Source: a phage | Strand: one strand, 5' to 3' | Sequence record: NC_136442.1 | DNA: 50,809 nucleotides | Shown: piece after piece, positions 8,915 to 37,323 of the stretch | How the letters are laid out: every line of letters starts with the position of its first letter | Position numbering within the stretch: position 1 is the first letter of the stretch | Position numbers and translations under genes: made by a program | Notes under the pieces: model-generated | The model's input: the letters and a program-made list of their open reading frames with translations, nothing else | Database searches by the model: none | What the model was told of the DNA's origin: nothing

Positions 8915-11900
8915 ATGGCTAAATATATGATAAGTGGCAGTAAAGGGGGCGGTCAAAAGCCCTACGTGCCAAAAGAGATGGAAGATAACCTGATCTCGAT
9001 AAACAAGATTAAAGTTTTGCTGGCTGTATCTGATGGCGAGTGCGATCCAGATTTTACGTTGCGTGATCTTTATCTTGATGATGTTCCGGTTATTGCCAGC
9101 GATGGCACTGTTAACTACGAGGGAGTTACGGCTGAATATAGGCCAGGTACGCAGACGCAAGATTACATCCAGGGTTTTACTGACACATCAAGTGAGGTTA
9201 CAGTTGCCAGAGATATTACCGGAGACAATCCTTATGTTATTTCTGTTACAAATAAAAACCTATCTGCGGTAAGAATAAAGATCCTGATGCCAGTAGGCAT
9301 TAAAACAGAGGATAATGGCGATCTTGTTGGCGTAAGGGTTGAGTATGCCGTAGATATGGCTGTTGATGGCGGTTCTTATAGCGAGGTTATGAGAGATGTA
9401 ATTGACGGCAAGACAAGATCAGGATACGACCGCAGCAGAAGGATTGATCTTCCTAAGTTTGATGAGCGCGTTTTAATCAGGGTTAAGCGACTTACCCCAG
9501 ACAGCACATCTTCAAAGGTGACTGATAAAATCAAACTGCAAAGTTACGCTGAGGTTGTGGATGCAAAATTCCGTTATCCTCTGACTGGCCTTGTATTTGT
9601 AGAATTTGACAGCGAATTGTTTCCTACACAAATCCCTAACATTTCTATAAAAAAGAAATGGAAGATTATTAATGTGCCAAGCAACTATGATCCAATATCA
9701 AGAGAATATCACGGGTCATGGGATGGGACTTTTAAGAAAGCGTGGTCAAATAATCCTGCATGGGTTCTTTATGATCTGGTGACGAATCAGCGTTATGGGC
9801 TTGACCAGCGAGAGTTAGGGATACAGATCGACAAGTGGAGCTTATACGAGGCAGGCGTTTACTGTGATCAGAAAGTTCCAGACGGTAAGGGCGGTACAGA
9901 GCCTCGCTACCTATGCGATGTGGTGATTCAGAATCAAGTTGAGGCTTATCAGCTAATCCGTGACATTTGCTCAATCTTTCGCGGAATGAGCTTTTGGAAT
10001 GGTGAGAGCTTATCAATCGTGATTGATAAGCCGCGCGATCCATCATACGTGTTTACTAATGAAAACGTCATCAACGGTGATTTTCAGTACACAACCGCAA
10101 GCGAAAAAAGCATGTACACGCAATGTAATGTGACGTTTGACGACGAACAAAACATGTATCAACAGGACGTCGAGGGGGTTTTTGATACTGAGGCGGCATT
10201 ACGATTTGGATACAATCCAACAAGCATTACAGCGATCGGGTGTACACGCAGGAGCGAAGCGAATCGTCGAGGTCGGTGGGTTTTGAAAACAAACCTTAGA
10301 AGCACTACTGTAAACTTTGCTACTGGACTGGAGGGGATGATTCCATCCATAGGTGATGTGATTGCTATCGCTGATAATTTTCAGAGCAGCAATCTAACGT
10401 TAAATCTTTCGGGCCGAGTAATGGAAGTTTCAGGCTTGCAAGTTTTCGTTCCGTTTAAAGTTGATGCGCGTCCTGGTGATTTTATTATCATCAATAAGCC
10501 GGACGGCAAGCCAGTTAAGCGAACGATCTCAAAGGTGAGCGCGGACGGAAAAACCATTGAGTTAAATATTGGCTTTGGTTTTGATGTTAAGCCAGACACT
10601 GTTTTTGCGATTGACCGTACTGACCTTGCGTTGCAGCAATACGTTGTGACCACTATCAGCAAGGGAGATGACGAAAACGAGTTTACCTATTCAATCACGG
10701 CTGTGGAGTACGATCCGAACAAATACGACGAGATTGATTATGGCGTAAACATTGATGACAGGCCTACTTCAATTGTTCAGCCTGACGTGATGGCAGCGCC
10801 GGAGAATGTTCAGATCTCATCTTATTCTCGCGTCGTGCAGGGTGTTAGCGTTGAAACTATGGTTGTTTCATGGGATAAGGTTCCTTACGCATCGCTTTAT
10901 GAAATGCAGTGGCGAAAAGGTGATGGTAACTGGCTGAATACGCCGCAGACCGCTAACAAAGAGATAGAGGTAGAAGGAATTTATTCAGGCAACTACCAAG
11001 TAAGGGTGAGATCCGTTTCTGCAAGCGGTAACACTTCCCCGTGGTCAAAGATTGCAACAGCTACCCTGACAGGTAAAGTTGGCGAGCCAGGAGCGCCGAT
11101 TAATCTTACAGCTTCTGATAATGAAGTTTTTGGCATTCGTGTCAAATGGGGCATGCCGGAAGGATCTGGCGATACGGCTTACATTGAGCTTCACCAATCG
11201 CCAGATGGAACGGTGGAAAACTCAAGTTTGCTTACGCTGATTCCATATCCTCAATATGAGTATTGGCATAGCACGTTACCAGCGGGTAAAGTTGTATGGT
11301 ATAGAATCCGTAGCGTTGACAGGATCGGCAACGTTTCAGGCTGGACTGACTTTGTTCGTGGCATGGCGTCAGATGATGTTGAATCTGTTTTAGGCGACAT
11401 TCTTGACAAGATTTTTGATACCGAAGCTGGTCAAGAAATCAAAGAGAACGCCATAGACAGTGCCAACAAAATCAAAGACCAGGCGCAATCAATCATCCAG
11501 AACGCATTGGCAAATGATTCTGATGTTAGAGTTATGAAAAAGGAGAATGGGAAACGGAAAGCTGAATTTAGGCAATCTATACAGATGATTGCTGATGAAA
11601 CAGAGGCAAGGGTAACAGCGTTAACGCAATTAAAAGCAGAATTTGATGAGGAGATAACTAGCGAAGTAACAAGACTTGATCAGGCGATCGCAACAGAATC
11701 AGAAACGCGAGCAACAGCTATAGAGGAATTAAAATCACAGATTGGTGATGATATTCAGGGGCAGTTAACGAGAGTTGAGGAAGCGATTGCAAGCGAAACA
11801 GAAGCGCGCGTTTCTGCCGATACTGCATTAACGGCAAAGTTTGGTGATCTTGAGTCAGCACTTACTGAAAAACTTGATTCATGGGCTGGCGTTGATTCCG

Positions 11901-13532: not shown

Positions 13533-13563
13533 CTTCAATACTCCTTAGTTGTCGTTGCCTGTA

Positions 13564-13606
13564 ACTATACACGATCCGACAAGCGGCGTTTAGCAAAAAG
13601 TGCTAC
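13564..13606 (-). promoter_or_regulatory. motif-type promoter cassette (variant GTAGCACTTTTTGCTAAAC, 18-nt spacer, TATAGT) for the lipoprotein gene
   Basis: Motif, spacing and -10-like hexamer read on the minus strand. Confidence 0.55.
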
Positions 13607-13975
13607 TTGTTATTTTTTGTTTTTCGGCGTTATCGAATTTAAGGCGGCGTAAATTTAGCGCAAATTTTAGCCAACATAAGGGCAATAAACAATCAATAAA
13701 ATAGATATATACATATAAAATCAATAGTTTATTTATTTATGTATGTATATTTGTTTTTTCTTGTTATCTGTGTTTCTTGTGGTTTTGGTTGTTTGTGGTG
13801 ATTTTTCTTTCTGAGTATCTGTATGTGCCATCATTCATGTGTATGTATATAATCCGGCGTATCTGAGAGAACAAGGGAACAAGAAAAATAACACATATTA
13901 ATCATTGACTTACGTTTCAAATTTGTTTTATTGCAATCTAAGAACGTTTAGAAAACAGAAAAAACAAAACAGCTA

Positions 13976-14003
13976 TTGACTAAATCAACCAAATGGCTAC
14001 AAT
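13976..14003 (+). promoter_or_regulatory. sigma70-type promoter TTGACT-16-TACAAT driving the exonuclease-Erf-SSB module
   Basis: Near-consensus -35 and -10 at correct spacing, 30 nt upstream of the RBS/ATG at 14034. Confidence 0.65.
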
Positions 14004-14033
14004 GCACACACAAAGCAACAAGGAGCATCAAAG

Positions 14034-15089
14034 ATGAGTGATTTTAACGCCTACACTAGCGAAGAAATGAGCAATGAGCTTTATCATGATCCTAACGCGT
14101 GGACGGCTGAATACGTCAGCGGTTCCAGCTTGGCGGAGATTTACAGCACTTGCCCGGCGTACTGGAAGTACAAGCCTCGCCAGGAAACTAAGGCACTTGT
14201 TTTCGGTACGCAGTCGCATACCAATTTTGAAAGCAAGGAGTTATTCGAAAAAACATATCGCCGCGCACCGTCGCAGGATGACTTTAAAGATCTGATCACA
14301 AGCCAAACTGCGTTAGCTGCAAAGCTGAAATCTTTTGGCCTGAAAGGTACAACGGGTAAGCAATATCCAGAATTGCTGGAAATGCTGTACAAGTGCGGTG
14401 AGGATCTCAATGTATGGTGGCTTATCGAAATGATGGCAGAATGCCAGGCCGCAGCGGACGGAGTGCAGTTAATCGACGCGAAAGATTATGATGCCTGTGT
14501 AGCGATGCGGCGCGTACTTGAGGCAATACCTGAGCATAATGCTTGCATGAATAGCCCAACCGCGCAGCGTGAAATGTCAATATTCGGGATCATCAATGGC
14601 GTAAAAGTTAAAGTGCGCCTTGATCACGTTGACGTAAACAAGGATGTAAAGGCCACAATCATTAACGGTTACGACGAAAAAGGCCGACCGATTTATGAAG
14701 AAGTCATCTATCCAGAAGCTGTGATTATCACTGACTATAAAACAACGGTTAGCGCAAATCCGGTTGACTTCCAGCGCCTGGCTTACAATCACGGCTATTA
14801 TCTCAAAATGGCTTTGCAGCATGATTTATTTAAAAAGGCGTATCCAGACGAGGAAAGGCCAGTAATTGTGAGATTGCTTGCTCAAGAGAAGAAAGAGCCT
14901 TACTTGCCGCTCGCATTCCGCATGAACATTGAGCAATTGAAGATCGGGCGTATCCAGTACATGAGCGTGATCAACAAGTTCAACGTTTGCCAACAGTTAG
15001 ATGAATGGCCTTCGTATGCAAACGGGCAGCCAGAAATTGATCTTGATACTCCTGATTGGGTGCGCGCTCAATTCAGGCAGTATCTATAA
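14034..15089 (+). CDS. PD-(D/E)XK family exonuclease (recombination exonuclease)
   Basis: RLDHVD ... ITDYKT motif pattern; adjacent to Erf and SSB. Confidence 0.65.
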   Translation: MSDFNAYTSEEMSNELYHDPNAWTAEYVSGSSLAEIYSTCPAYWKYKPRQETKALVFGTQSHTNFESKELFEKTYRRAPSQDDFKDLITSQTALAAKLKSFGLKGTTGKQYPELLEMLYKCGEDLNVWWLIEMMAECQAAADGVQLIDAKDYDACVAMRRVLEAIPEHNACMNSPTAQREMSIFGIINGVKVKVRLDHVDVNKDVKATIINGYDEKGRPIYEEVIYPEAVIITDYKTTVSANPVDFQRLAYNHGYYLKMALQHDLFKKAYPDEERPVIVRLLAQEKKEPYLPLAFRMNIEQLKIGRIQYMSVINKFNVCQQLDEWPSYANGQPEIDLDTPDWVRAQFRQYL

Positions 15090-18757: not shown

Positions 18758-18778
18758 ATAGCACTTTTTGCTAATGAC
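18758..18778 (+). promoter_or_regulatory. 20-nt family motif (variant ATAGCACTTTTTGCTAATGAC) directly abutting the tail fibre RBS on the opposite strand
   Basis: Motif read directly; lies between the primase terminator and the tail fibre start. Confidence 0.55.
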
Positions 18779-18814
18779 AATGCAGATAATAGCATTTTCA
18801 AATGCAAAAAAAAA

Positions 18815-18840
18815 CCCCGCATAAGCGGGGCAATACTAGC
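18815..18840 (-). terminator. intrinsic terminator after primase gene
   Basis: CCCCGC-TTAT-GCGGGG hairpin followed by T9 on the minus strand. Confidence 0.8.
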
Positions 18841-18846
18841 GGAGTT

Positions 18847-19776
18847 TTATAGCAGTGATTCGGGCTTGTATAGTTTTCTTTCTACGCCCTGTTTAAAATT
18901 ATCGTTAACAGGCATCATTATGTCAAGACCTCTTTCCTCTGCTGCGATTATCACATCACGATCATCTTTCCGGCAGACTACGCGCATCCTTCTTTCTCCT
19001 TTATATCTATGCGCAACCATTTCAAGATTTGAAGGAGTAAAGCAAGCCCACACCTCTTGACCAGTTGATAAATGAACATGTTGGGAGTCAACCCAATCAA
19101 GGCACAAATAGATCGTCTTATCTGTGCTACCTGTTTTAACAACAGATCCGCGCGTGTAGTCGCGAGCTAAAAACCAATCCTTTCCATCCTCATCAATGAA
19201 AAGCACGTTACACATTTCATCATCAAGCCCGTCATCATGCACCAAGTGACAAGGTAGCGCGTGAATGTATCGACCATCCTTGACGCCGCAATCATAATGA
19301 CAACCTTCCGGCGGATATATCCCCTCATAAACGCTTAAAGGTGTGCGATCGAATTTTAATGTTTTTGCCATCACTTTTTCGCAGCATTCATGACTTGCCT
19401 GTTTCCCGAACGAGTAACCAGAAGAACGCGAAGCGCGCTTGTTTGCTCTGATCCTGTAATCCTGCGGCACTTTTCCGAGGAAGCGGCCCAAAATGTTGAT
19501 GGCCTCGCTGTAAGGTTCGCCAGTTAATTTCATTAACCAGCCGATCCCCGTGTCGTTACCGCACACGTTGCAGATCGCGCCGCCGTCGCCCTCTTCATTT
19601 AGCTTATCAGTCCATCTAAAACGATCCTTACCGCCGCAGTGTGGGCAAGGCTGATGCTTTTTGTTGAAAACATCGCTATGCAGTCCGCAAATGCTTTGTA
19701 GTGCTTCACGCCATAACCCCTTCATATATGGCAAAACGTCTTCTTTCTGATAGGTCATAAAGTTTTCAGTATTCAT
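18847..19776 (-). CDS. DNA primase (zinc-binding plus TOPRIM-like)
   Basis: CPHCGG...C zinc-finger motif and acidic DxD/E clusters; start MNTENF chosen over upstream in-frame codons. Confidence 0.55.
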   Translation of the reverse strand: MNTENFMTYQKEDVLPYMKGLWREALQSICGLHSDVFNKKHQPCPHCGGKDRFRWTDKLNEEGDGGAICNVCGNDTGIGWLMKLTGEPYSEAINILGRFLGKVPQDYRIRANKRASRSSGYSFGKQASHECCEKVMAKTLKFDRTPLSVYEGIYPPEGCHYDCGVKDGRYIHALPCHLVHDDGLDDEMCNVLFIDEDGKDWFLARDYTRGSVVKTGSTDKTIYLCLDWVDSQHVHLSTGQEVWACFTPSNLEMVAHRYKGERRMRVVCRKDDRDVIIAAEERGLDIMMPVNDNFKQGVERKLYKPESLL

Positions 19777-19788
19777 GGCAAACCCCAA

Positions 19789-19824
19789 TAAAAAAGCCCA
19801 GCAAATATTATCATTTCGCTGGGC
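19789..19824 (-). terminator. intrinsic terminator between HTH gene and primase gene
   Basis: GCCCAGC ... GCTGGGC hairpin followed by T6 on the minus strand. Confidence 0.6.
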
Positions 19825-19831
19825 CTTATCA

Positions 19832-20308
19832 TTAGCTATTCGTGCTGTTATCACCTTTGTAGAATCGTCCGCCTGGTTCGTAGTCTGAATTTTTGACTAC
19901 GCGCAACATTTCGTATTTGTCGCAACGGGTAGTAAGAGGCTTGCCGTTAGAATCAAACCGCAGATCTGGACGACAAAACGAGGCGCGGTATCCTTTGCAT
20001 CCATTATATTTGTAGTCGTTATGCACCTTTTGTGCTCCAGCGGCTGAAATCATACCACGCTTTCGCCACTGGTTAACGACTTGCTGAGATACGCGCAGAC
20101 GTCGAGCCATAGCAGGAACACCGCCGTAATACTCGATCAGAATGTCAAGGCGAGATTTTAGGCTTGCTTTTACCTCATCTCGCAGGATAAGAAATCCGGT
20201 TCGGTGTTTTCGTGGCTTTTTGTCTTTACCTCGTCGCGTTCCGTTGTTACCGTTAATAGTGCGCTTGTCGATCTCACCCGTAGACACTGCAATTCGTGCA
20301 TCTTTCAT
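19832..20308 (-). CDS. basic HTH DNA-binding protein (Cro/YdaS-like helix-turn-helix)
   Basis: GGVPAMARRLRVSQQVVNQWRKRG helix-turn-helix-like segment; arginine/lysine-rich N-terminus. Confidence 0.55.
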   Translation of the reverse strand: MKDARIAVSTGEIDKRTINGNNGTRRGKDKKPRKHRTGFLILRDEVKASLKSRLDILIEYYGGVPAMARRLRVSQQVVNQWRKRGMISAAGAQKVHNDYKYNGCKGYRASFCRPDLRFDSNGKPLTTRCDKYEMLRVVKNSDYEPGGRFYKGDNSTNS

Positions 20309-20319
20309 CTAGTCACCTC

Positions 20320-20363
20320 ATAGCATTTTTTGTTAAAACAGTTTATTGTAATGAGTCTATTAT
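20320..20363 (+). promoter_or_regulatory. motif-type promoter cassette (ATAGCATTTTTTGTTAAAAC, 18 nt, TATTAT) upstream of helicase
   Basis: Motif and spacing read directly; divergent to the HTH gene. Confidence 0.6.
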
Positions 20364-20395
20364 ATACTCCAAATGGCATTTTTTAAAGGTTTAAG

Positions 20396-22393
20396 ATGAT
20401 TCCAAATATCGAAAAACAAATATCAGCGTTAGGCGAGGCAGTAATAAAAAGCATCCAAGAGCGATTCACTGTTGGCAATATAGTGCCTTATCCTTATCAG
20501 TGCGTTGCGTATGCCGAGATCGCAAAGCGCATGAAAAACTATGAGCATCCTTTCTTTGTTAAGGCTTCTGTGTCGGCTGGCAAAACATTGATGTTTGCGA
20601 TGGTTGCGGCGCAATGCCGCAAAATGGGATTGAAAATGATGGTCCTTGCTCGCCAGGCTGAAATTGTTGATCAGGATTCGGAAGAGATCAGCAATCTTGG
20701 CGTGCCAAACTCAATCTATTGCGCCGGACTGAAAACAAAAAGCGCATACTTTCCGATCGTAGTCGGTTCTGAGGGCACTGTAGTAAACGGATTGTTTAAG
20801 TCGTTAGGTGATTATGTTCCGCACGTTATCGGTATTGATGAATGTCACCAGGTGGATTGGGAGGATCTCGCTGATGCGATAGAAAATAATGAATCTTACC
20901 AGCAGATGACCACTAAGAAGGATTTGCCTGTACTGATTGGAGAAGAACAGCAATTTGATTCCAATGGCGATCCAATGTTCGGAACAGGGCGCACACAGTA
21001 CACCGTAATAATCATGGAAATGATGCGCAGGTGTCGCGAGGCATACGGGCACGAATTGCGAATATTCGGTATGACTGGATCTGAGTTTCGCGGCGTGGTT
21101 CCAATACTGGTTGAAGATAAGAACAAAAAGGGATTCTGGCGTGAGCAGGTGACTAACATAGACACAAACTACTTAATCAAATTTGGTTCGGTAGTGCCAA
21201 CAAATTTCGGCGACGTAGGCGACCTGGGGTATGACCTTTCAGAGTTCGAAGCCAGTAGCGAGGATGGCGTTTCAGACTTTGACGCTAAAACATTGCGCAA
21301 GATGGAAGAAAAAATCCATCAAGACGCAACAATGACACAGAAAATCATGGCTAAAGTCCATGAGATATGCAAAGACAGGAACGGAGTTTTAGTTACATGC
21401 GCAGGGGAAAGGCACTGCAAGGAGGCCGCCGCCGCACTGCCTCCAGGCGTTGAATACAGGATCATAACTGGCAAGACTGGAGACAATCAGCGTAAAGAGT
21501 GGCTGAGGGAGGCATACGATGGAAAAGTAAAATACATCTTCCAGGTACAGGCGCTTACCACTGGCGTTAACGTTCCGTTTTGGGATACTTCGGTAATACT
21601 GAGAAAGATAGGATCTCTAACATTGCTTATCCAGCTTTTGGGGCGCGGTATGCGACTGCTTAAGCAATGGCACATTGAGCAGGGATTCAAGAAAAAAGAC
21701 CATCTTGTATTGGATTTTGCCGGTACTATGGATGAGTTAGGGGATTTGTATTTCGATCCAATCCTTGAGCAAGCGCAATTCCAAAAGAGATTTACAAACG
21801 GGAAAGAGCCTAAGACTTGTCCGATATGTGGAACGCTAAACAGCTTTTACGCTCGCCGATGTATGCACGTAGACGATAACGGGAAGAGATGCGAGCATTT
21901 TTGGACTTACAGAATTTGCGAGGACCAGGTAGATCCGAGAACGAAAAAGATAATCAAGCGCGGTTGCGGAACAAAAAACGACGTAGTGGCGAGAGTATGC
22001 CGTTGTTGCGATATTTCTCTTGTCGATCCTAACGAGAAGTTAAGCGGCAAGCACTACACCAAAAACGATTGGTGCAACGTTAAATCTTTCCGCGTTGATA
22101 TGACGAAAAACCAGAAAGGAATTGTTTTTTGCTATGAGCTTGAGGCCAACGGCGACACGTTCAAGGCATACGAAAGATTTTTCCCTGAGTCAGAAAGCAA
22201 CATTTGCCGGACGATATGGAGAAAAATAGCATTGCAGCACATACCGGATCGCAAGATTGCTGGTATGGTGGCGAGCTATAGAAATGCGCGTAAAATAATG
22301 TCATACGCTCATCACATCATGCCTCCTGTACGCGTAACGCATCGCAAAAACGGCAAAGGTGAGGATAACATTGCAAAACGGGAGTTTGTTTAA
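20396..22393 (+). CDS. superfamily 2 DNA helicase (DECH box) with C-terminal Cys-rich zinc-finger region
   Basis: Walker A-like SAGKT, motif II GIDECHQ, motif VI QLLGRGMR, CxxC pairs in C-terminus. Confidence 0.75.
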   Translation: MIPNIEKQISALGEAVIKSIQERFTVGNIVPYPYQCVAYAEIAKRMKNYEHPFFVKASVSAGKTLMFAMVAAQCRKMGLKMMVLARQAEIVDQDSEEISNLGVPNSIYCAGLKTKSAYFPIVVGSEGTVVNGLFKSLGDYVPHVIGIDECHQVDWEDLADAIENNESYQQMTTKKDLPVLIGEEQQFDSNGDPMFGTGRTQYTVIIMEMMRRCREAYGHELRIFGMTGSEFRGVVPILVEDKNKKGFWREQVTNIDTNYLIKFGSVVPTNFGDVGDLGYDLSEFEASSEDGVSDFDAKTLRKMEEKIHQDATMTQKIMAKVHEICKDRNGVLVTCAGERHCKEAAAALPPGVEYRIITGKTGDNQRKEWLREAYDGKVKYIFQVQALTTGVNVPFWDTSVILRKIGSLTLLIQLLGRGMRLLKQWHIEQGFKKKDHLVLDFAGTMDELGDLYFDPILEQAQFQKRFTNGKEPKTCPICGTLNSFYARRCMHVDDNGKRCEHFWTYRICEDQVDPRTKKIIKRGCGTKNDVVARVCRCCDISLVDPNEKLSGKHYTKNDWCNVKSFRVDMTKNQKGIVFCYELEANGDTFKAYERFFPESESNICRTIWRKIALQHIPDRKIAGMVASYRNARKIMSYAHHIMPPVRVTHRKNGKGEDNIAKREFV

Positions 22394-22812
22394 TGGCTAT
22401 AACTGATAAAGGCGATTATCTTGAGTTTTACGAAAGGGATCCAACCGACACGAGAAGGGAAGTTAATCACCAGATAGATAGTTTTCAGTGGTTGACTTAT
22501 GCTCATCCTTATTTGCTGGCGTGGCATACGGTAAACGAGAATGAGAAGTCTAAAGCAACGGCGATGATTGATCAGCAGTCCGGCTTGGTTAAGGGAGTAA
22601 GCGATTTCATCATCCTGATTGGTTTAAACGGAAAATACCCCTTTGCAGCGATTGAGATCAAACGAGTGAATAAATCAGGCAAGGGGAAAGCATCACCAGT
22701 CAGCGATGAACAAAAGGCTTTTTTGCGTCGCGTTCGCAGCTTAGGAGGATTCGCTGCGGTAGCCTACGGATTCAATCAGTTTAAGTTGGCTATTGAATAC
22801 ATGCTTAAATAG
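22393..22812 (+). CDS. VRR-NUC domain nuclease
   Basis: GVSDF...IEIK PD-(D/E)XK-type motif in a roughly 140-aa protein after the helicase. Confidence 0.55.
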   Translation: MAITDKGDYLEFYERDPTDTRREVNHQIDSFQWLTYAHPYLLAWHTVNENEKSKATAMIDQQSGLVKGVSDFIILIGLNGKYPFAAIEIKRVNKSGKGKASPVSDEQKAFLRRVRSLGGFAAVAYGFNQFKLAIEYMLK

Positions 22813-22852
22813 CACTTTTTGTTAAAACTGGCGCGATGGATTGCGCCATAAT
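22809..22852 (+). promoter_or_regulatory. motif-type promoter cassette (motif, hairpin spacer, CATAAT) upstream of dam
   Basis: Consensus motif 22809-22828; inverted repeat GGCGCGATGGATTGCGCC in spacer; hexamer 22847-22852. Confidence 0.6.
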
Positions 22853-23880: not shown

Positions 23881-23923
23881 TAGCACTTTTTGTTAAAACG
23901 CCCGACCTAGTGTCGGGCATAAT
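23880..23923 (+). promoter_or_regulatory. motif-type promoter cassette (motif, hairpin GCCCGACCTAGTGTCGGGC, CATAAT)
   Basis: Read directly. Confidence 0.6.
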
Positions 23924-23955
23924 TATTTCAACGAAGCAAACATGAGGAAATAAAA

Positions 23956-27096: not shown

Positions 27097-27140
27097 AATA
27101 TACCCGACACTAGGCCGGGCGTTTTAACAAAAAATGCTAT
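27097..27140 (-). promoter_or_regulatory. motif-type promoter cassette (ATAGCATTTTTTGTTAAAAC, hairpin spacer, TATATT)
   Basis: Read on minus strand; hairpin GCCCGGCCTAGTGTCGGGT nearly identical to the one at 23900. Confidence 0.6.
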
Positions 27141-29976: not shown

Positions 29977-30689
29977 TTTGAGTTTGACTCAAAGACGGCG
30001 CGAGCAAATCCGCGCGGAGTGAGGGAGCGGATCATCTTTGTGCGCGATGACTTACCGCCAGTTTTGGCCCAGCCTGGATTATCTTTGTCTTCCTCTTTCG
30101 GCAGGATTAAAGCGCGCGGAGGAATAACAAAGCCGTTGCCAGTCCAGAGGCACGTTTTCTTAAAATAGCGATCCCGTGCCGGAATAATATCAGGGAAGTC
30201 GGGATGTTTATCATCTTCCGGCAGATAGCCAGCGTAATCGCACGGATGGAACGTATAATCAGGCTTACGCCATAACGTTGACAACTTGCCAACCGGATTT
30301 TCGATCATGTAAGGAACACCGAAATAATCAGCTATATCAGCCGCAATTCTGCAAGTGTCGGCGGCCTCATCCTGGAATGATGGATTCTCAAGGCGTTTTT
30401 TGGCCCAATGGCGAGATCCGCTATTTGCAAGGTCGGTGCATGGTGGGAAGGCCATAATAAAATCAGGATTGCCCCACTCATTATTGATTGCCTTAACATA
30501 AAAAGCATCATCAATCCAGACGTTAACGTATTCGATATTCTCATGCTGTATGCGCACTGACTGGTAATCACCGTGATCGCCGCCGTCAGCATTAAAGCAA
30601 ATGCACTTATAGCCATTATCAGCCCAATCTTTAACGGCTTTACCAGATCCATCAAATAGGGAGAATATTAAACCTTTATACATCGTCAT
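29973..30689 (-). CDS. putative DNA (cytosine-5)-methyltransferase-like protein
   Basis: LFDGSG (motif I-like), PPC (motif IV-like), ENPVG (motif VI-like) in canonical order; alternative start at 30683. Confidence 0.45.
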   Translation of the reverse strand: MTMYKGLIFSLFDGSGKAVKDWADNGYKCICFNADGGDHGDYQSVRIQHENIEYVNVWIDDAFYVKAINNEWGNPDFIMAFPPCTDLANSGSRHWAKKRLENPSFQDEAADTCRIAADIADYFGVPYMIENPVGKLSTLWRKPDYTFHPCDYAGYLPEDDKHPDFPDIIPARDRYFKKTCLWTGNGFVIPPRALILPKEEDKDNPGWAKTGGKSSRTKMIRSLTPRGFARAVFESNSK

Positions 30690-30693
30690 TACC

Positions 30694-30918
30694 TCAAAAC
30701 GGAAAACAGCGCGCACAACCAGGATCGAAATCGCATCCACAATCATTAACAATCATAGTGGGATCTGCAAATATTGCGCTTGACTCAAGATCCATATCCA
30801 TATCACCTAAAGCCTCATCAAGAGTCTTAATTTTATATGCCACTTCAAGCGCCGCCTCTTTATTTAGTCCGGCATCTTCTGCCATTTGAAGGCGCTCAAA
30901 AAAACCATCTTGACTCAT
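30694..30918 (-). CDS. hypothetical acidic protein with C-terminal CGCDFDPGCARC motif
   Basis: 74-aa ORF, TGA/ATG coupling with upstream mini-gene. Confidence 0.5.
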   Translation of the reverse strand: MSQDGFFERLQMAEDAGLNKEAALEVAYKIKTLDEALGDMDMDLESSAIFADPTMIVNDCGCDFDPGCARCFPF

Positions 30919-32009: not shown

Positions 32010-32296
32010 TCAACAACTTTTCCAGTTAAAGAGATAAGTTGCCTTGTGATCTTGTGGCGGCGATACTTACGCGCAACAACCGGAAGGTTTTCACCGCTTT
32101 GATGACCAAAGCAGATCGGCAATTCACCTTCAAGGGAGCGGAAGCCACCAAATTCAAGATCCCGCACTGGCTTAGCGCGCCAGGCTTCAATAAATCCGCG
32201 CTCGTCACGAGTGATATAGCGGTATATATTTGGGAGGGGCAATTGTATCCCCTCAAAATCAACTGTGTCGGTGTAGCTGTAAAACTTAGAACTCAT
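32006..32296 (-). CDS. hypothetical protein (96 aa from ATG 32296; frame open further upstream)
   Basis: GGAG RBS before ATG 32296; stop TAG embedded in motif. Confidence 0.5.
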   Translation of the reverse strand: MSSKFYSYTDTVDFEGIQLPLPNIYRYITRDERGFIEAWRAKPVRDLEFGGFRSLEGELPICFGHQSGENLPVVARKYRRHKITRQLISLTGKVVE

Positions 32297-32471
32297 AGTC
32301 AACAACTCCAAACTCGTTAACGATTTGCGCCTTGTAGAATCCGCCATTTTTCGCAAGGTTGTAGCAAGCGGCTACGGTTTCAAATTCGCGCGCTTCCGGC
32401 TGGCTGTTTTCGTGTTCCCAGGTAATCAGAGTAACCATTTTCAAATCCTCGCATTCGTTGTCGATGCGTGT

Positions 32472-32515
32472 AATGTACAGGAATACGAGGATTGAGTTTT
32501 AACAAAAAGTGCTAT
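32472..32515 (-). promoter_or_regulatory. motif-type promoter cassette (consensus motif, 18 nt, TACATT)
   Basis: Read on minus strand; leader ACACGCATCGACAACGAA. Confidence 0.6.
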
Positions 32516-32779
32516 TTAGTCCAGGAATTCGATTTCACGCTCTCCAGTTAACGGATCCACAAGCCAGAATCCGAGCGGTTCGCCGTGAACACCGCCATAG
32601 AATCCAAGCGCCGTCAGATCTTCACCTTTAACGAATACCAGATTCCCGCTACGGCTTACGTGAGACACGTTAACGATAACCGGAAATGTGCGATCCTTAA
32701 ATGCAGGCCGCAGGGCGTAACATCCGTTGTTGAGCAAACGTGCTTTGCGCTTAACTGGAATAGGTGCATTAATTTTCAT
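32516..32779 (-). CDS. hypothetical protein (87 aa)
   Basis: GGAG RBS; stop adjacent to motif. Confidence 0.55.
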   Translation of the reverse strand: MKINAPIPVKRKARLLNNGCYALRPAFKDRTFPVIVNVSHVSRSGNLVFVKGEDLTALGFYGGVHGEPLGFWLVDPLTGEREIEFLD

Positions 32780-32791
32780 GGTTATTACTCC

Positions 32792-33004
32792 TTATCGTAA
32801 AGATTTAAAGACGTATAGTTTACTGCGGTAACTATATATCCGCATTGTTATTTCTCGCAGTGCAATATATTCCTTCCTGTTTTCCGGCAGACTGGCGAGC
32901 AACAACAGGCAGTATTTATAAGCGCGGTCAAGATTCCTTTCCGTGCCCCTGCAATATCCCTTGTTGCGCCTGGAGCGGTACAGCCATAACAATTTCTTGA
33001 ACAT
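32792..33004 (-). CDS. hypothetical basic protein (70 aa); coding status uncertain
   Basis: ATG 2 nt after upstream stop; arginine-rich, weak RBS. Confidence 0.3.
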   Translation of the reverse strand: MFKKLLWLYRSRRNKGYCRGTERNLDRAYKYCLLLLASLPENRKEYIALREITMRIYSYRSKLYVFKSLR

Positions 33005-33005
33005 T

Positions 33006-33215
33006 TCAGATACGCCCATATAGATCACAGACTTCGTTGATAAAACAGCGTTGAGACTCTTTATCCTGCTTCTCAAACATCGCACGGCACTCATAGCGGT
33101 GATTATGTACGATGACAACAACCATATTTTCAGGTGCTGACGGGTTACGCGCGGAAGCGTCGCAGATTGAAACATCCATACCCATCTCATGTGCTTTCTT
33201 GATCACATCCAACAT
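33006..33215 (-). CDS. hypothetical protein (69 aa)
   Basis: AGGAG RBS 9 nt upstream of ATG 33215. Confidence 0.5.
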   Translation of the reverse strand: MLDVIKKAHEMGMDVSICDASARNPSAPENMVVVIVHNHRYECRAMFEKQDKESQRCFINEVCDLYGRI

Positions 33216-33469
33216 TTTTTCTTCTCCTGCAATAAGCAAACATCATTGATAAAATCAGCACGGCCCTTAATGTTGCTGATGTGGAACGTCTTTTCAGCGT
33301 ACAGGCCATCACCTTCAATCACGATCATTACGCGAGTCGGTTTATTTACGGGCGCACACGAAAAGAGTGGTCGCGCCGGAAGAAATTTAGTAGCCACATC
33401 CAGGTTAGCCCTGGCGGCCCTGCAAAACGCCTCCGCCAGATCCAAATCATTTTCGGTAATCACCGCCAT
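33203..33469 (-). CDS. hypothetical protein (88 aa)
   Basis: TAATG coupling with upstream gene. Confidence 0.5.
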   Translation of the reverse strand: MAVITENDLDLAEAFCRAARANLDVATKFLPARPLFSCAPVNKPTRVMIVIEGDGLYAEKTFHISNIKGRADFINDVCLLQEKKKCWM

Positions 33470-33741
33470 TACTTCTTGATCTCCTCACTGATAAATTTCA
33501 GCACCTGACGCAAGAAAACCTCGTTGTTGATAGTCGCTGGCAATTCTTCTTTCACTTCTTGCGGCAGATAGATATTGCCGTGCCAGGTCAAGCAATCGTA
33601 GTTGATACGATAAGAGCAAAGCCACTCGCAATCGTTATCTGCTTCCCAAATGCAGAGTTGCAGAACATCGCCAAAATCTTCAACAGTCAGATCCAGACCG
33701 TGACGCTTAGCGAAATTGAAAGTGGTTTTGCTGATGTTCAT
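33469..33741 (-). CDS. hypothetical protein (90 aa), first gene of the leftward early block
   Basis: Follows motif cassette; AGGAGA RBS. Confidence 0.6.
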   Translation of the reverse strand: MNISKTTFNFAKRHGLDLTVEDFGDVLQLCIWEADNDCEWLCSYRINYDCLTWHGNIYLPQEVKEELPATINNEVFLRQVLKFISEEIKK

Positions 33742-33775
33742 TGCTATCTCCTGAGCGGTTCGTTTCGATGTGTGT

Positions 33776-33819
33776 AATGTACCCGATCAGGTGGCCTGAG
33801 TTTTAACAAAAAGTGCTAT
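33776..33819 (-). promoter_or_regulatory. motif-type promoter cassette (consensus motif, 18 nt, TACATT)
   Basis: Read on minus strand; leader ACACACATCGAAACGAAC. Confidence 0.6.
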
Positions 33820-33850
33820 TTGACGGTTAGAGCCAGGATTGTGATCGAAA

Positions 33851-33938
33851 TAATCAGAAGTAATCATTCGTAATCAAATCACGTCAAAATGATGATTGCC
33901 TTTGCAAATTTGATGAGAAAAGTAATCACGTTTAATCA
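33851..33938. repeat. five TAATCA direct repeats phased at 10-bp intervals (33851, 33861, 33871, 33923, 33933)
   Basis: Read directly; helical phasing in a non-coding divergent region. Confidence 0.8.
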
Positions 33939-34358
33939 TTGGTTGCAGGGGAGATAGTGAAACATTCCCCTCTTGCCTCACTTTTCCGCCTGGCTGTCAG
34001 TGGTTGTTATGTTCCGTTCCCGCCTGTTCTTTTGTTGACCTTCCGCAAAATACGATAACAAAAAATAACAAACAATACCTATATAATACATTGAAAAATA
34101 AGGATTATTTATTTATATGTATCTATATATTCTCTTTTGTTATCTTGGTTATTGTGGTATTTGGTGGGGGTATATAGTTTTTGTGTATCTATATGTGTGT
34201 ATGGGTATGTAAGGGCATATATATCTATATGGCACTTTCCGCGAGAAAACTTCGATAACAATCAATGATAACATTGATTTATAAGGAAAAATAACGCCTA
34301 TATTGTTATTGTGCCACCATATAAAATTGATAAAACACGCGGGAACAAGAAAAAACAG

Positions 34359-34387
34359 TTGACACATTAAATAGCATTATTGATAAT
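34359..34387 (+). promoter_or_regulatory. consensus sigma70-type promoter TTGACA-17-GATAAT for the rightward early block
   Basis: Perfect -35, 17-nt spacer, -10 GATAAT, followed by AGGAGG RBS and ATG 34416. Confidence 0.7.
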
Positions 34388-34415
34388 GCCGACACCTAAC
34401 AACCAGGAGGCAGAA

Positions 34416-34880
34416 ATGAGCGAGCAATCATTCACTGACACGCTGCGCCGTGCAGCTATTATGCTGGCTAATGGCGAGGAAGAGACGATTAAGATTCCTG
34501 ACGCGTATTTGCAGGTCCACATGTTCGGCAAGAAGTCGGCAAGCAATCCGGCGGCCTACATTCGCCAGATCATGAGTCGAGTGCCAGAAGTCGCCGAGCG
34601 GGGGCGCGTATCCGTTACCCGTGGCGTTTACGGGCCGGAAGATGAAAACTTCGGTAGCACTTTCTACGAGGTGCGCATTGTTGAAGGCCGTCGCAAGGTT
34701 TACAACAAAGAGGCACTGGAAAGGGCAGTACGCCAGGCTAAGCGCAAAGTTGCAGAGGCGATCATTGATATGTCACCCAACCTGGCAAACTATGCGCCGG
34801 AAGAGTATGAAACATTATCAAAGGCCGTCGCTGACTTTCACGCGATGATCAAAAAAACTTTCCTGGAGGATGAGCAATGA
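34416..34880 (+). CDS. hypothetical protein (154 aa), first rightward early gene
   Basis: AGGAGG RBS 6 nt upstream; immediately downstream of the consensus promoter. Confidence 0.65.
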   Translation: MSEQSFTDTLRRAAIMLANGEEETIKIPDAYLQVHMFGKKSASNPAAYIRQIMSRVPEVAERGRVSVTRGVYGPEDENFGSTFYEVRIVEGRRKVYNKEALERAVRQAKRKVAEAIIDMSPNLANYAPEEYETLSKAVADFHAMIKKTFLEDEQ

Positions 34881-35137
34881 AAAAGGCGTTAATCGGTGTT
34901 TTGGTGGCAATGACACTCCTGACCGGATGCGAAAAGGCATCAGAATCAACGGTTGTCGTAGGCGTGGAGTCAGATTTCAAAGTCGGCCGCCTGTTCACTG
35001 TTGACGGATGCACAGCATACAGATTCTATGATAACGGTCGCGCGATCTATTACACCAATTGCAAAGGCGCAACGGATAGCACGTACAACAGCGGAAAGAA
35101 CGTAATGCACCAGCAAGTCACAACAGATATTAAATAG
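34877..35137 (+). CDS. lipoprotein (86 aa)
   Basis: Signal MKKALIGVLVAMTLLTGC with lipobox; ATGA overlap with upstream gene. Confidence 0.6.
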   Translation: MKKALIGVLVAMTLLTGCEKASESTVVVGVESDFKVGRLFTVDGCTAYRFYDNGRAIYYTNCKGATDSTYNSGKNVMHQQVTTDIK

Positions 35138-35177
35138 CACTTTTTGTTAAAACGCCAGGCGCAAAGCCTGGCATAAT
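35134..35177 (+). promoter_or_regulatory. motif-type promoter cassette (consensus motif, hairpin GCCAGGCGCAAAGCCTGGC, CATAAT)
   Basis: Read directly; leader AGCCTCATCGAAACGAGA then GAGGAA RBS. Confidence 0.65.
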
Positions 35178-35209
35178 AGCCTCATCGAAACGAGATTGAG
35201 GAAACAAAA

Positions 35210-35395
35210 ATGGCACGTCGCATCACCAAAGACCTTAAAGTTCTTAACAAAGAAAACGTAGTTAAAATCCTGGTTATCTGGGGCTACAACGAAGAAACAG
35301 CAAAGCAGAAGGTAGAGGCAGGTTATGACCTGGCTGTAAAAGCAATGCCAAACGACGACGCCAAAGGCATTGCAAACTATGTAGCTTTCTTTTAA
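35210..35395 (+). CDS. hypothetical protein (61 aa)
   Basis: ORF after cassette with RBS. Confidence 0.55.
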   Translation: MARRITKDLKVLNKENVVKILVIWGYNEETAKQKVEAGYDLAVKAMPNDDAKGIANYVAFF

Positions 35396-35410
35396 TTAGC
35401 AGGTGAATAA

Positions 35411-35596
35411 ATGAAAACGAAATTAGTCCATAAATCAGAAATCAAGATCGGCGATACTGTGATTCACAACGGAGAGCTTAGAACGGTTGGCAAAGAGTCA
35501 ATAAGCCACGATGAATTTATGGGGATTTTGTTGTTCGGTGACTCTTATCGTCTTGGTTACAAGATGGTTGAGCTTGTGGAAGAGGTAAAATTCTAA
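35411..35596 (+). CDS. hypothetical protein (61 aa)
   Basis: GGTGA RBS; stop adjacent to next motif. Confidence 0.5.
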   Translation: MKTKLVHKSEIKIGDTVIHNGELRTVGKESISHDEFMGILLFGDSYRLGYKMVELVEEVKF

Positions 35597-35640
35597 ATAG
35601 CACTTTTTGTTAAAACTCAAAAACGACAACCAGGCATAAT
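35597..35640 (+). promoter_or_regulatory. motif-type promoter cassette (consensus motif, 18 nt, CATAAT)
   Basis: Read directly; leader contains hairpin GGGGCGGCACGGCGTCGCCC. Confidence 0.6.
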
Positions 35641-35695
35641 AAATCACATGGGGCGGCACGGCGTCGCCCAGTAAAACCAATCAGGAGAAAGCATC

Positions 35696-36586
35696 ATGTT
35701 AAAACTTACTGACATTAAATTCCCGATCACCTTCGAATCTCGCGGCGTTGGTCATTTCATGTTTACCGACGAGAAGACATGCACTAAGTTTAACGAATAC
35801 GGAAGTCCAAACGCTTCAACAATGGAGATTGAACACTTCATTGAAGCGCACAATAAACACTACAACTCACTCAGAGACTACGGTTACGCAATGCCAGGCT
35901 ACACCTGTTTCCACTACAAGCCATATAAAGGCCAGGTGTTGCCAGTGCGCTCACCGGAACGCGCAGAGATTCCGATGGTCGAGATGAAAACCTGCGACTA
36001 TAAAAAATTGTGGTGCTTAAGTGTGGACAATATCAAGTATCCGATCACGTTCCGCTCCGCTGGTAATTCAACGATTCGCTACACATCGCGCGACAATGGC
36101 GTTTATAGCAGTGGTCAGAAATCAGAGCTTAAGGTGGATTTCTTTGTTAATGGTCATAATAAATACAATCCGCACAATGAAAAAGATAAGATTTACTATG
36201 TGGAAGACATTACAAAACACTTGTTTGGAGAAACTCCATTCGGCGGCGGAAAGACGTCAATTCAAAAAATAATTGGCGAGGAGATCCACAAAGCGGCTGC
36301 CGAAATGAAAGCGCCTGGAGGCTGGCGTATTGATAAGAGCGCCTTTGCAAATCAAGAAATCGTAACGCAGGGCGCGATTGAAGATATGCCAGTTGCAGCC
36401 ACGCTAAAAGGAGTCCGGCTTGATGATGGTGTGTGGTTTGAATTAACGGCTACACCAAAGACGATCGAGATTCATGATGATGTTGTTATCCTCCTGCTTC
36501 ACTACGGCGGCACTAAAAATCGGACTGTTGCAGGTGAGATCAGCATCAAGCGCGGAACGACGGTTAAGTGGAAGGTAAAGATTTGA
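35696..36586 (+). CDS. hypothetical protein (296 aa) with internal tandem duplication
   Basis: Segments DIKFPITFESRGVGH and NIKYPITFRSAGNST repeated within the protein; AGGAGA RBS. Confidence 0.65.
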   Translation: MLKLTDIKFPITFESRGVGHFMFTDEKTCTKFNEYGSPNASTMEIEHFIEAHNKHYNSLRDYGYAMPGYTCFHYKPYKGQVLPVRSPERAEIPMVEMKTCDYKKLWCLSVDNIKYPITFRSAGNSTIRYTSRDNGVYSSGQKSELKVDFFVNGHNKYNPHNEKDKIYYVEDITKHLFGETPFGGGKTSIQKIIGEEIHKAAAEMKAPGGWRIDKSAFANQEIVTQGAIEDMPVAATLKGVRLDDGVWFELTATPKTIEIHDDVVILLLHYGGTKNRTVAGEISIKRGTTVKWKVKI

Positions 36587-36662
36587 GTTTGTTCACTGCG
36601 GCGCACGTCGCCGCATGGATCGGATTGTTTGCCTACCTGTTTAGATTTTATTGAGGTGAGAG

Positions 36663-36815
36663 ATGGCTACCTGGATTTTGCTGATTCTTATGATTGATGG
36701 CGGCGTTGACCATATCGAAATGAATAGCCAGCAATCTTGCATTGAGGCACGAGAGCAGATCAAGAACAACAACAGGTTTTATGCGTACACTCACACGCTA
36801 TGTATTAAGAAATAG
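36663..36815 (+). CDS. hypothetical small hydrophobic protein (50 aa)
   Basis: GAGGTGAGAG RBS; stop TAG lies inside next motif; below ORF-track cutoff. Confidence 0.45.
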   Translation: MATWILLILMIDGGVDHIEMNSQQSCIEAREQIKNNNRFYAYTHTLCIKK

Positions 36816-36854
36816 CACTTTTTGTTAAAACTCAAATGTGGGGCCAGGTATAAT
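36812..36854 (+). promoter_or_regulatory. motif-type promoter cassette (consensus motif, TATAAT inside hairpin GGCCAGG...GGCC)
   Basis: Read directly. Confidence 0.6.
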
Positions 36855-36884
36855 GGCCTCACTTTCAACGAAGGAGATAAAACG

Positions 36885-37115
36885 ATGTACATTAAAAAGA
36901 AGATGAAATGCGTTTCCGTTAACTATGCTTGCTCTGGCATGTTCAAGCCTGGCGAAATCTATACGGCGCAAAAACTGAAATCATCAACCGGATCTTTTTA
37001 CGTGAGCAATAGTAAGGGGCATCGCATGTTCCTGAACGGCGGCGAAGGCACTAAGGTTATGGCACACGCTATGGTAATGGCTGAATTTGAGGAAGTGAAA
37101 GATGAAAACAAATAA
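36885..37115 (+). CDS. hypothetical protein (76 aa)
   Basis: AAGGAGA RBS before ATG 36885. Confidence 0.55.
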   Translation: MYIKKKMKCVSVNYACSGMFKPGEIYTAQKLKSSTGSFYVSNSKGHRMFLNGGEGTKVMAHAMVMAEFEEVKDENK

Positions 37116-37323
37116 GCGCGTCAAGCACAGGTTTACTGATAACCACGGCGACGCGATTGATGTATACAAGTTCGGAGATCGCGTGTTTATTGATGGCACG
37201 TTTGAAGGTGGGCGTAGGCCGGATTTTAGGTCGATACTTACCGTTGACCAAGTGCGCAAGCTGGCAGATAAGTTAAATGATCTGGCAGATGAAATAGAAT
37301 ACAAGCAAATCCATTTTAATTGA
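37102..37323 (+). CDS. hypothetical protein (73 aa)
   Basis: Overlaps previous gene end; GAGGAAG upstream. Confidence 0.5.
   Translation: MKTNKRVKHRFTDNHGDAIDVYKFGDRVFIDGTFEGGRRPDFRSILTVDQVRKLADKLNDLADEIEYKQIHFN

Follow-up and report, generated by a model that had tools for sequence, protein, structure and literature searches.

Genes of the helicase-primase region

The window analyzed here, i.e., the whole stretch of 50,809 nucleotides (sequence record NC_136442.1), is the genome of a T1-like siphovirus (Drexlerviridae, Tempevirinae, Warwickvirus). It is 99.3% identical to Escherichia phage tiwna across positions 18800-22400, and mapping of the tiwna proteins onto the window indicates that it represents a circular permutation of essentially the whole genome. 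The region of interest encompasses a gene for a helix-turn-helix (HTH) protein and its two neighbors:

20396..22393, plus strand: SF2 helicase gene, divergent to the HTH gene and driven by a promoter that contains a 20-nucleotide repeat (20-mer).
19832..20308, minus strand: coding sequence, stop codon included, of a 158-aa basic Cro-type HTH protein (phrog_2856), with an ATG start.
18847..19776, minus strand: primase gene (Zn_Ribbon_Prim), downstream of the HTH unit.

The HTH gene is the sole regulator gene predicted in this genome, and its counterparts are the sole annotated regulators of T1 and tiwna. About 850 Drexlerviridae phage records, all of them genomes of ~50 kb, contain the gene; these syntenic homologues, together with a confidently predicted fold, rule out a chance reading frame. 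The first-pass annotation described the product as an Arg/Lys-rich protein of 158 aa with a Cro/YdaS-like HTH, and proposed it as a reasonable candidate for the factor that recognizes the 20-mer. The extent and the basic character of the protein are confirmed: it contains 35 K+R versus 16 D+E residues and has a pI of 10.2, rising to 11.4 for residues 1-40.

A Cro-type protein with two additional conserved modules

The HTH protein is homologous to T1 gp23 (ST23), TLS gp57 and tiwna gp48, with 100% identity to tiwna gp48 and the proteins of the tiwna group and 58% identity to those of the T1 group. These are direct orthologues, alike in synteny, in the anatomy of promoter and terminator and in the neighboring direct repeat, and none of them differs structurally from the protein encoded in the window. 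In many GenBank records, the protein is already annotated as a “(putative) transcriptional regulator”, and the gene is ordinary in kind; a literature search retrieved no experimental work on the protein and no escape mutants in the gene.

The assignment to the Cro/YdaS-like HTH proteins proved correct. The protein has a full-length profile match to the “transcriptional regulator” family phrog_2856 (E = 1.6e-72; residues 4-144 aligned with positions 2-142 of the 165 in the profile). Residues 55-90 score below the gathering thresholds of the Pfam families YdaS_toxin (PF15943; 28.7 bits, only just short of the threshold of 30) and P22_Cro (PF14549; 19.9 bits, threshold 30.2), and many orthologues have precomputed matches to PF15943 or PF14549. 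Structure prediction and a fold search, which had been suggested as a check, yielded a Cro-type, all-alpha, lambda-repressor-like fold with a helix-turn-helix, and a sequence profile search of the PDB retrieved the same Cro proteins (E about 8e-4). In the AlphaFold model, built with 29 diverse homologues, residues 31 to ~150 are confident (means of ~85-98 over 10-residue blocks), and residues 1-30, at about 55, appear to be disordered. The HTH protein has no Pfam match to HTH_18 or HTH_AraC, and MarA and Rob are absent from its fold matches; it is not a member of the AraC family.

Three segments can be delineated in the protein:

Residues 12-34: invariant N-terminal arm.
Residues 44-101: HTH core.
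C-terminal part: conserved GYRASFCRPDLRFD module.

The family alignment holds a surprise in the contrast between its conserved ends and its variable recognition helix. The basic arm (DKRxxNGNNGTRRGxDxxxRK; mean entropy 0.71 bits) and the C-terminal module (0.69 bits) are the most conserved segments of the family, whereas the putative recognition helix (helix 3, aa 75-84) is the most variable one (1.99 bits), with more than 3 bits at residues 75 and 79, which are among the usual base-contact positions.

No similarity of either the arm or the C-terminal module to Pfam families was detected at E-values up to 10. Shorter relatives that lack the arm retain the HTH and the ASFCRPDL module and are still encoded between helicase and primase. 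An exhaustive profile search with clustering at 50% identity produced few full-length representatives, the remaining matches being generic small Cro/YdaS proteins. By fold and sequence, the HTH protein is an uncharacterized member of the P22-Cro/YdaS kind with two extra conserved modules. P22 Cro and Xfaso-1 Cro are likewise small, basic proteins encoded at a divergent promoter that heads replication genes; the HTH protein, however, is ~100 residues longer, the additions including a basic arm of 35 aa and the C-terminal module. Unlike classical Cro, it is found in virulent phages and has neither a repressor partner nor a tripartite operator.

The HTH transcription unit and its interdigitated promoters

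The divergent control region upstream of the HTH gene contains the following elements:

20382..20387, minus strand: -35 hexamer TTTAAA of the HTH-gene sigma-70 promoter, separated from the -10 hexamer by a 17-bp spacer; inside the helicase 5' leader, adjoining its Shine-Dalgarno (SD) sequence.
20370..20380, no strand assigned: 5-1-5 palindrome AAATGGCATTT, located between the -10 and -35 hexamers of the HTH-gene promoter, a candidate local operator.
20358..20364, both strands: shared -10 block, with TATTAT at 20358-20363 (plus) for the helicase and TATAAT at 20359-20364 (minus) for the HTH gene.
20320..20339, plus strand: 20-mer ATAGCATTTTTTGTTAAAAC, the marbox-type element of the helicase promoter, at -50..-31.
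20309..20319, minus strand: leader segment with the SD sequence GAGG (reverse complement of 20316-20319), the eleven bases from the start codon to the 20-mer.

The first-pass annotation placed the start of the gene 12 nt from the motif copy; eleven bases lie between the two, and the overlap of the -10 hexamers of the two directions is as it was described. An independent consensus scan returned the HTH-gene promoter (10 of 12 positions matched) and no other strong sigma-70-like site in this region. Its alignment with P57, the promoter predicted for gp57 of phage TLS, is base for base; the TLS genome yielded just three predicted sigma-70 promoters, P57 among them (PMC11447400, Table S1). The intergenic sigma-70-like sites of the window are found at the same three places as in TLS, namely before exoVIII, the HTH gene and gp76.

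At the other end of the gene, three elements are closely packed:

19830..19848, minus strand: degenerate element of the marbox type, ACAGCACGAATAGCTAATG, which overlaps the HTH gene's final five codons (NSTNS) and its stop codon.
19790..19825, minus strand: intrinsic terminator of the HTH gene, immediately past its stop codon and made up of a GC-rich hairpin and then U6.
19805..19810, minus strand: -10 hexamer TAATAT of the primase promoter, preceded by TGa, in the loop of the HTH-gene terminator.

A 63-nt fold on the minus strand (19778-19840), which comprises the terminator hairpin and a weaker outer stem, has a predicted energy of -26.2 kcal/mol (z -5.2), and T1 has an annotated terminator at the equivalent position. 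With its own sigma-70 promoter (TTTAAA-17-TATAAT), leader and coding sequence, and with the strong terminator directly following, the HTH gene forms a monocistronic unit. The element ACAGCACGAATAGCTAATG is the upstream element of the primase promoter and has copies in TLS (DR10), Stevie, L039, L046 and T1; given this degenerate 20-mer at the end of the HTH gene and the -10 hexamer in the terminator loop, the primase, too, has a promoter of the 20-mer type.

The switch-like divergent promoter that the first-pass annotation had pointed out is real and conserved, with -10 bases shared between opposite strands. Across 80 related IMG/VR loci, which include relatives with only 34-35% protein identity, the interdigitated layout is retained in all 80 (53 distinct sequences), as it is in T1. 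Without exception, these loci have a motif copy 8-12 nt away from the start codon, and the top-scoring sigma-70 promoter on the strand of the HTH gene (9-11 of 12 positions) has its -10 hexamer on the -10 bases of the helicase promoter. The 20-mer at 20320-20339 is located in the transcribed leader of the HTH gene, at about +14..+33. Because the upstream element of each promoter lies within the leader of the other, the two promoters would have to compete for polymerase.

For a Cro-type protein that binds an operator next to its own gene, the candidate sites in this region are the dyad contained in the 20-mer (see below) and the palindrome AAATGGCATTT at 20370-20380. A search of the control region for a classical Cro operator returned only trivial 6-nt palindromes, and neither iterons nor lineage-specific inverted repeats were found there. 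The palindrome AAATGGCATTT is retained in the clades of the window, L005 and TLS, though not in every clade. Covariation between helix 3 and this palindrome was considered and rejected: the clades of the window and TLS share the palindrome yet differ in helix 3.

The 20-mer as a class II marbox

In phage TLS, the repeat was described in 2024 as aaATAGCACnnnTTGnTAAAA, present at 21 locations, 18 of them outside genes; similar repeats were noted in T1, Rtp and Rogue1, and the function was left open between a stoperator, an enhancer site and an UP element (PMC11447400). A frequency matrix derived from 412 unique instances of the motif across the fetched loci gives the consensus aaATAGCACnwwTTGyTAAAa. 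Next come 18 variable bases that often include a GC hairpin, then a TATAAT-like -10 hexamer, with G found at -14, and a C(-1)A(+1) that is conserved as well. With the -10 hexamer at motif positions 39-44 and the CA at 50-51, the motif spans -50..-31 and is centered at ~-40.5 with respect to the start sites so inferred. In the -35 slot, the 20-mer promoters match TTGACA at 0-3 positions. An inverted repeat centered at -42, TAGCA-N5-TG(C/T)TA, is made up of motif positions 2-6 and 12-16, and half of the motif instances contain a perfect 5-N5-5 inverted repeat with this dyad.

More tellingly, the motif matches the E. coli marbox, for which the consensus sequences gcannwwntgnnaaa (PMC12052159) and AYnGCACnnWnnRYYAAAY (PMC3709825) have been published. 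The phage motif agrees with the marbox at all specified positions except 19, the WW center included; the copy at 20320-20339 also has T rather than C at marbox position 7. A search with the published marbox consensus returned 17 exact matches in the window, with 0.12 expected, and 15 matches in T1, with 0.10 expected. Class II marboxes are in the forward orientation, overlap the -35 region, have their center near -41 and occur at promoters without a recognizable -35 hexamer (PMC10268841; PMC8811837). The 20-mer promoters conform to these rules of orientation and position when their inferred start sites are used. On sequence and geometry, the 20-mer can be classified as a consensus class II marbox, the site type of the two-HTH AraC-family proteins MarA, SoxS, Rob and RamA. 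Two motif positions, A3 and T11, are each conserved in 96% of the phage instances and correspond to “n” in the marbox; A3 extends the dyad.

When compared with class II promoters that depend on MarA, SoxS, Rob or RamA (for example, micF, lpxC P2, lpxL P1, rfaY P1 and yadG), the phage promoters are alike in that a forward marbox centered near -41 replaces the -35 hexamer and is followed by a normal -10 hexamer and a CA start. Host marboxes are degenerate, however, whereas the phage copies are nearly identical consensus sites with the extra conserved A3 and T11; furthermore, unlike in the host, ~20 copies drive most of the non-structural genes, and many have a terminator hairpin in the spacer.

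Other interpretations of the motif fared poorly. As an UP element plus -35 hexamer, TTGyTA would lie 22 bp from the -10 hexamer, which is too far, and ATAGCAC does not resemble an A/T tract, so that this reading was rejected as sufficient on its own. As a sigma-54 promoter (TGGCAC-N5-TTGC), on inspection of the sequence, the motif has AG in place of GG and a spacing 2 bp too short, and the sigma-70 -10 hexamer at a fixed distance from the motif also speaks against this possibility. To our knowledge, the 20-mer bears no convincing likeness to the sites of Fis, IHF, CRP, FNR, LexA, DnaA or ArcA. Searches of the literature revealed no link between T1-like phages and the marbox, MarA, SoxS or Rob, and nothing relevant on T1 transcriptomes or start sites.

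The motif is invariant among the 80 IMG/VR loci, their distant relatives and Dibbivirus, that is, from E. coli phages through to a Xanthomonas phage. Because of this invariance, covariation between the recognition helix and the motif could not serve as evidence.

Phyletic patterns and the reader of the 20-mer

A gene of the HTH family and the motif are both present in T1, TLS, Rtp, the contigs L082, L083 and L085, and DIBBI, and both are absent from Sortsne, LPST10, Vibrio phage K220 and KpV2811, which have a related helicase or primase; this co-occurrence is drawn from a small number of independent lineages. In Sortsne and KpV2811, the primase and helicase genes abut directly, without an HTH gene between them.

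Dibbivirus (Xanthomonas phage DIBBI, Pantoea phages AAM37 and PSKM, and contig L085) is a sister lineage. These phages have the same motif promoters and encode a MarA-like HTH_18 protein of their own, which scores above the Pfam threshold; their Cro-like protein is arm-less, and there is no full motif beside its gene. Searches with phmmer, using MarA and the HTH_18 protein of L085 as queries, found no match in the window or in T1, and no MarA-like protein was found in Drexlerviridae proper, which therefore would depend on the host Rob, MarA or SoxS. Unstressed E. coli cells contain little MarA and SoxS, and their Rob, though abundant, is largely aggregated or sequestered (PMC10268841); for this reason, a phage-encoded helper is not far-fetched.

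Because the 20-mer has the features of a class II marbox and Dibbivirus encodes a MarA-like protein, its primary reader is probably of the MarA/SoxS/Rob type, and the Cro-like protein is more likely to be a modulator than the primary reader. The proposal of the first-pass annotation that the HTH protein reads the 20-mer is thus retained in part. The co-occurrence of gene and motif, the status of the gene as the only predicted regulator and the dyad at -42 keep the protein a candidate 20-mer binder or modulator; with its variable recognition helix, the marbox identity of the motif and the MarA-like protein of Dibbivirus, it is no longer the leading candidate for the primary reader.

A model for the control region and its alternatives

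The explanation that we tentatively favor, while holding it to be somewhat short of probable, combines a modulator of the Cro family, marboxes read by a protein of the MarA/SoxS/Rob type, and occlusion of the HTH promoter by the helicase promoter. The HTH protein, with its single HTH, would be made early from its own canonical sigma-70 promoter, its unit being wedged between the helicase and primase promoters, both of the 20-mer type. Since the -10 bases are shared and the upstream elements lie in each other's leaders, RNA polymerase would occupy just one of the helicase and HTH promoters at a time. The activator acting at the 20-mers, a two-HTH protein of the MarA/SoxS/Rob type, would come from the host in the case of Drexlerviridae and be encoded by the phage itself in Dibbivirus, and loading of polymerase at the helicase marbox promoter would shut off the HTH gene. 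The Cro-like protein would then be a feedback modulator of the replication-gene control region rather than a dedicated activator, and might act on other 20-mers as well, through the dyad TAGCA-N5-TG(C/T)TA or through its invariant N-terminal arm.

Several observations sit less comfortably with this marbox model. It is not obviously workable for a fast virulent phage to rely solely on host activators that are scarce or aggregated; the constraint on A3 and T11 could reflect a second, phage-encoded reader; the co-occurrence of the HTH gene and the motif in every lineage examined fits direct recognition as well; and the invariant arm and the C-terminal module could carry a specificity that the argument from helix 3 misses.

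The next best alternative, in our view rather unlikely, is that the HTH protein is a dedicated reader of the 20-mer and a class II activator at all 20-mer promoters, the likeness to the marbox being convergent or incidental. Made first from its sigma-70 promoter, the protein would bind as a dimer to the dyad at -42 and contact region 4 of sigma; it would be self-limiting, as the site at ~+25 of its own transcript would recruit polymerase to the competing helicase promoter. Such a role would account for the joint presence of gene and motif in Drexlerviridae, L082, L083 and Dibbivirus and their joint absence from four phages, for the motif copy 8-12 nt from the start codon in the 80 loci, and for the position of the gene as the only annotated regulator in T1 and tiwna and among the very few genes that have a canonical sigma-70 promoter. 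It also fits the lack of a usable -35 hexamer at the 20-mer promoters, the conservation above 95% of A3 and T11, which are free in the marbox, and the inverted repeat that is perfect in half of the instances, a dyad at -42 being the geometry of dimeric class II activators and the position of lambda cI at OR2 or of a class II CRP site.

Among known systems, lambda cI at OR2 (PRM-PR) and the E. coli face-to-face promoters of bioA/bioBFCD resemble the phage control region in that one site serves two divergent promoters, and by analogy with lambda OR, where a dyad of a size suited to a dimeric HTH protein is likewise at -42 of one promoter, autoregulation through shared DNA seems plausible. In contrast to lambda and bio, however, the -10 hexamers coincide here, the upstream elements lie in each other's leaders, and there is a single site instead of three operators. 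T4 MotA and Mu Mor, phage activators of -35-less middle promoters, would be the functional analogues of a dedicated reader, which, itself made from a host-type promoter, would switch on many promoters with a good -10 hexamer and a phage-specific box instead of the -35 hexamer, but their folds are unrelated, the box in T1-like phages is a host-type marbox at -50..-31 and not a MotA box at -30, and, unlike for MotA, no sigma-appropriation partner is evident for the HTH protein.

What weighs against a dedicated reader is that the DNA-contacting residues are not kept wherever the site is kept: the base contacts of helix 3 (aa 75, 76, 79 and 80) vary freely among phages in which the motif is identical. 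Moreover, the motif fits the marbox at every specified position but 19, and this match to a host site, positional rules included, is too complete to be set aside; Dibbivirus retains the motif and has a MarA-like protein of its own, and a full motif is missing next to its HTH gene; and the control region contains no other palindromic operator. If the protein were needed by nearly all early units, the phage would have to start from only about three host-type promoters.

An improbable alternative is that the HTH protein has no role at the other 20-mer promoters and is either a replication accessory, associated with the origin or with the primase or helicase, or a Cro-like repressor whose action is purely local, at the helicase and primase promoters. 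The gene is always located between helicase and primase, even at 34% identity, and in the arm-less lineages its stop codon overlaps the start of the primase gene, suggestive of translational coupling; neither a polymerase nor a known origin-binding protein is encoded by T1-like phages (PMC11447400); and a variable recognition helix is compatible with lineage-specific local sites. Neither iterons nor lineage-specific inverted repeats, however, were found in the control region, the gene is missing from related phages that have the same helicase-primase pair, and in Drexlerviridae a strong terminator separates the HTH gene from the primase.

Finally, it is highly doubtful that the N-terminal arm is a functional head docking on host Rob, MarA or SoxS or on RNA polymerase, with the HTH protein as an adaptor that mobilizes or replaces the host marbox activators at phage promoters. 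In favor of such a role, the arm (0.71 bits) is, together with the C-terminal module, the most conserved segment and is predicted to be disordered by itself; phages without a MarA-like gene have the armed protein, and Dibbivirus, which has such a gene, the arm-less one; and Rob is abundant yet sequestered in unstressed cells (PMC10268841). Against it, the argument draws on no more than two independent lineages, no likeness of the arm to any known motif was detected, and a basic arm could simply contact DNA.

Implications for T1-like phages

T1-like phages encode neither a polymerase nor a sigma factor, and for studying how they program the host RNA polymerase, the HTH gene is the obvious entry point because it is the only predicted regulator and has the most distinctive promoter context. 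The lead of wider interest is the marbox identity of the direct repeats of Drexlerviridae, which turns a vague question about their reader into a testable one.

In its broadest form, which we consider less than likely, the favored marbox reading is that T1-like phages run most of their non-structural genes from ~20 consensus class II marbox promoters and so couple their early program to MarA, SoxS and Rob, the regulators of stress and antibiotic resistance in the host, with the Cro-like protein as the phage's own handle on it. Reverse-oriented marboxes in or after late promoters (those of the major capsid protein, the tape-measure chaperone and the tail fiber) would then hold these genes back, and the Cro-like protein, expressed only when the helicase marbox promoter is unoccupied, would substitute for, mobilize or compete with the host activators. 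Were gp23 the reader after all, a Cro-fold protein would serve as a class II activator and mimic an AraC-family site, which would also be new.

Therapy cocktails against E. coli and Klebsiella make wide use of Drexlerviridae. On the broad reading, if true, susceptibility to an entire phage family would be tuned by the state of the mar/sox/rob regulon in the host, and if the host Mar, Sox and Rob proteins drive the phage promoters, antibiotic-stress physiology and phage susceptibility would be linked.

Marbox identity and architecture of the motif promoters

The genome-wide 20-mer, already published as the direct repeat of TLS, is a match to the E. coli MarA/SoxS/Rob marbox consensus, and both its position and its orientation are those of a class II site. 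Exact matches to this consensus number 17 in the window (0.12 expected) and 15 in T1 (0.10 expected). No link between the TLS direct repeat and the marbox was found in the literature searched. Copies of the 20-mer in the window include the following:

22809, 23880, 35134, 35597, 36812, 38045, 39556, 40849: 20-mer, listed with no strand sign
27122, 29284, 29958, 31991, 32497, 33801 (-): 20-mer

GC-rich hairpins occur in the 17 bp that separate the motif from the -10 element (window 22830-22846, 23901-23917, 27104-27120 and 35155-35171). Several have a T run behind them, and in T1 these hairpins carry annotation as rho-independent terminators beginning immediately 3' of a motif copy (38973-39001, 39998-40024 and 41980-42007). 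The terminator thus sits inside the next promoter, giving the order motif, terminator, -10. At most motif promoters a conserved C(-1)A(+1) also marks the start, the leader that comes next is rich in A and C (CATCGAAACGA, CATCGACAACAA; for example, window 23925-23940, 33740-33760 and 35180-35195), and the distance from the motif end to the start codon is very regular, at 54-66 nt.

Reverse-oriented copies at late genes

Copies of the motif in reverse orientation are present in the window and are kept in T1, in TLS (direct-repeat copy DR7) and in distant relatives:

2963-2981 (-), 18758-18776 (+), 49895-49913 (-): window
15069-15086 (-), 18833-18850 (-): T1
2894 (-): distant relative L082
5091 (-): distant relative L083

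At the tape-measure chaperone and tail-fibre genes, the reverse motif immediately precedes the Shine-Dalgarno sequence (…TTTTAACAAAAAGTGCTAT-AGGAG…), and one copy falls in the 16-bp spacer of a sigma-70-like major-capsid promoter (TTGACG 49889-49894, TATCAT 49911-49916). In this placement, which resembles that in marbox-mediated repression at pbpG, the copies might act as repression sites. Early mRNAs carry the sense motif at their 3' ends, and the leaders with the reverse motif match its complement perfectly, so antisense pairing is possible as well.

Control-region palindrome and long non-coding gaps

A perfect 5-1-5 palindrome, AAATGGCATTT, at window 20370-20380 lies within the spacer of the HTH-gene promoter and also where the helicase transcript begins; it is common to the window, the TLS clade and the 80%-identity clade, but not to all clades. 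Two regions between divergent units are unusually long non-coding gaps, each with one motif promoter and one near-consensus sigma-70 promoter, and could be the site of pac or origin functions:

13533-14033 (about 500 bp): long non-coding gap
33742-34415 (about 670 bp): long non-coding gap
TTGACT-16-TACAAT: sigma-70 promoter before exoVIII, counterpart of predicted TLS promoter P51
TTGACA-17-GATAAT: sigma-70 promoter before gp76, counterpart of predicted TLS promoter P01

The HTH gene and the motif in related phages

The Dibbivirus myophages (Xanthomonas phage DIBBI and contig L085) share the replication module and the motif promoters (DIBBI features at 30540-30831 and 36382-36792; motif copies within 32052-45705). 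Their HTH protein lacks the N-terminal basic arm, its stop codon overlaps the primase start, and gp47 is a phage-encoded MarA-like gene of the AraC family with a motif copy immediately 3'. In Sortsne and KpV2811, the 15-22 kb examined contained neither an HTH gene nor a motif copy; primase and helicase are directly back to back (9933-10001 and 3125-3200, respectively).

Two observations concern the records themselves. About 20 records labelled 'Campylobacter phage' contain typical coliphage T1-like genomes, and these host labels therefore look doubtful. In Citrobacter phage HCF1, the HTH-protein homologue (P0097) loses all similarity beyond residue 100, pointing to a frameshift or an error in sequencing.

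The primase-promoter motif extends over the HTH-gene 3' end (window 19830-19848 (-); TLS copy DR10; T1 about 35975-35995) and itself encodes the conserved C-terminal tail of the HTH protein (…NSTNS*, …STNC*, …DSTDC*). The DNA element, rather than protein function, is thus the probable reason why the tail is conserved.
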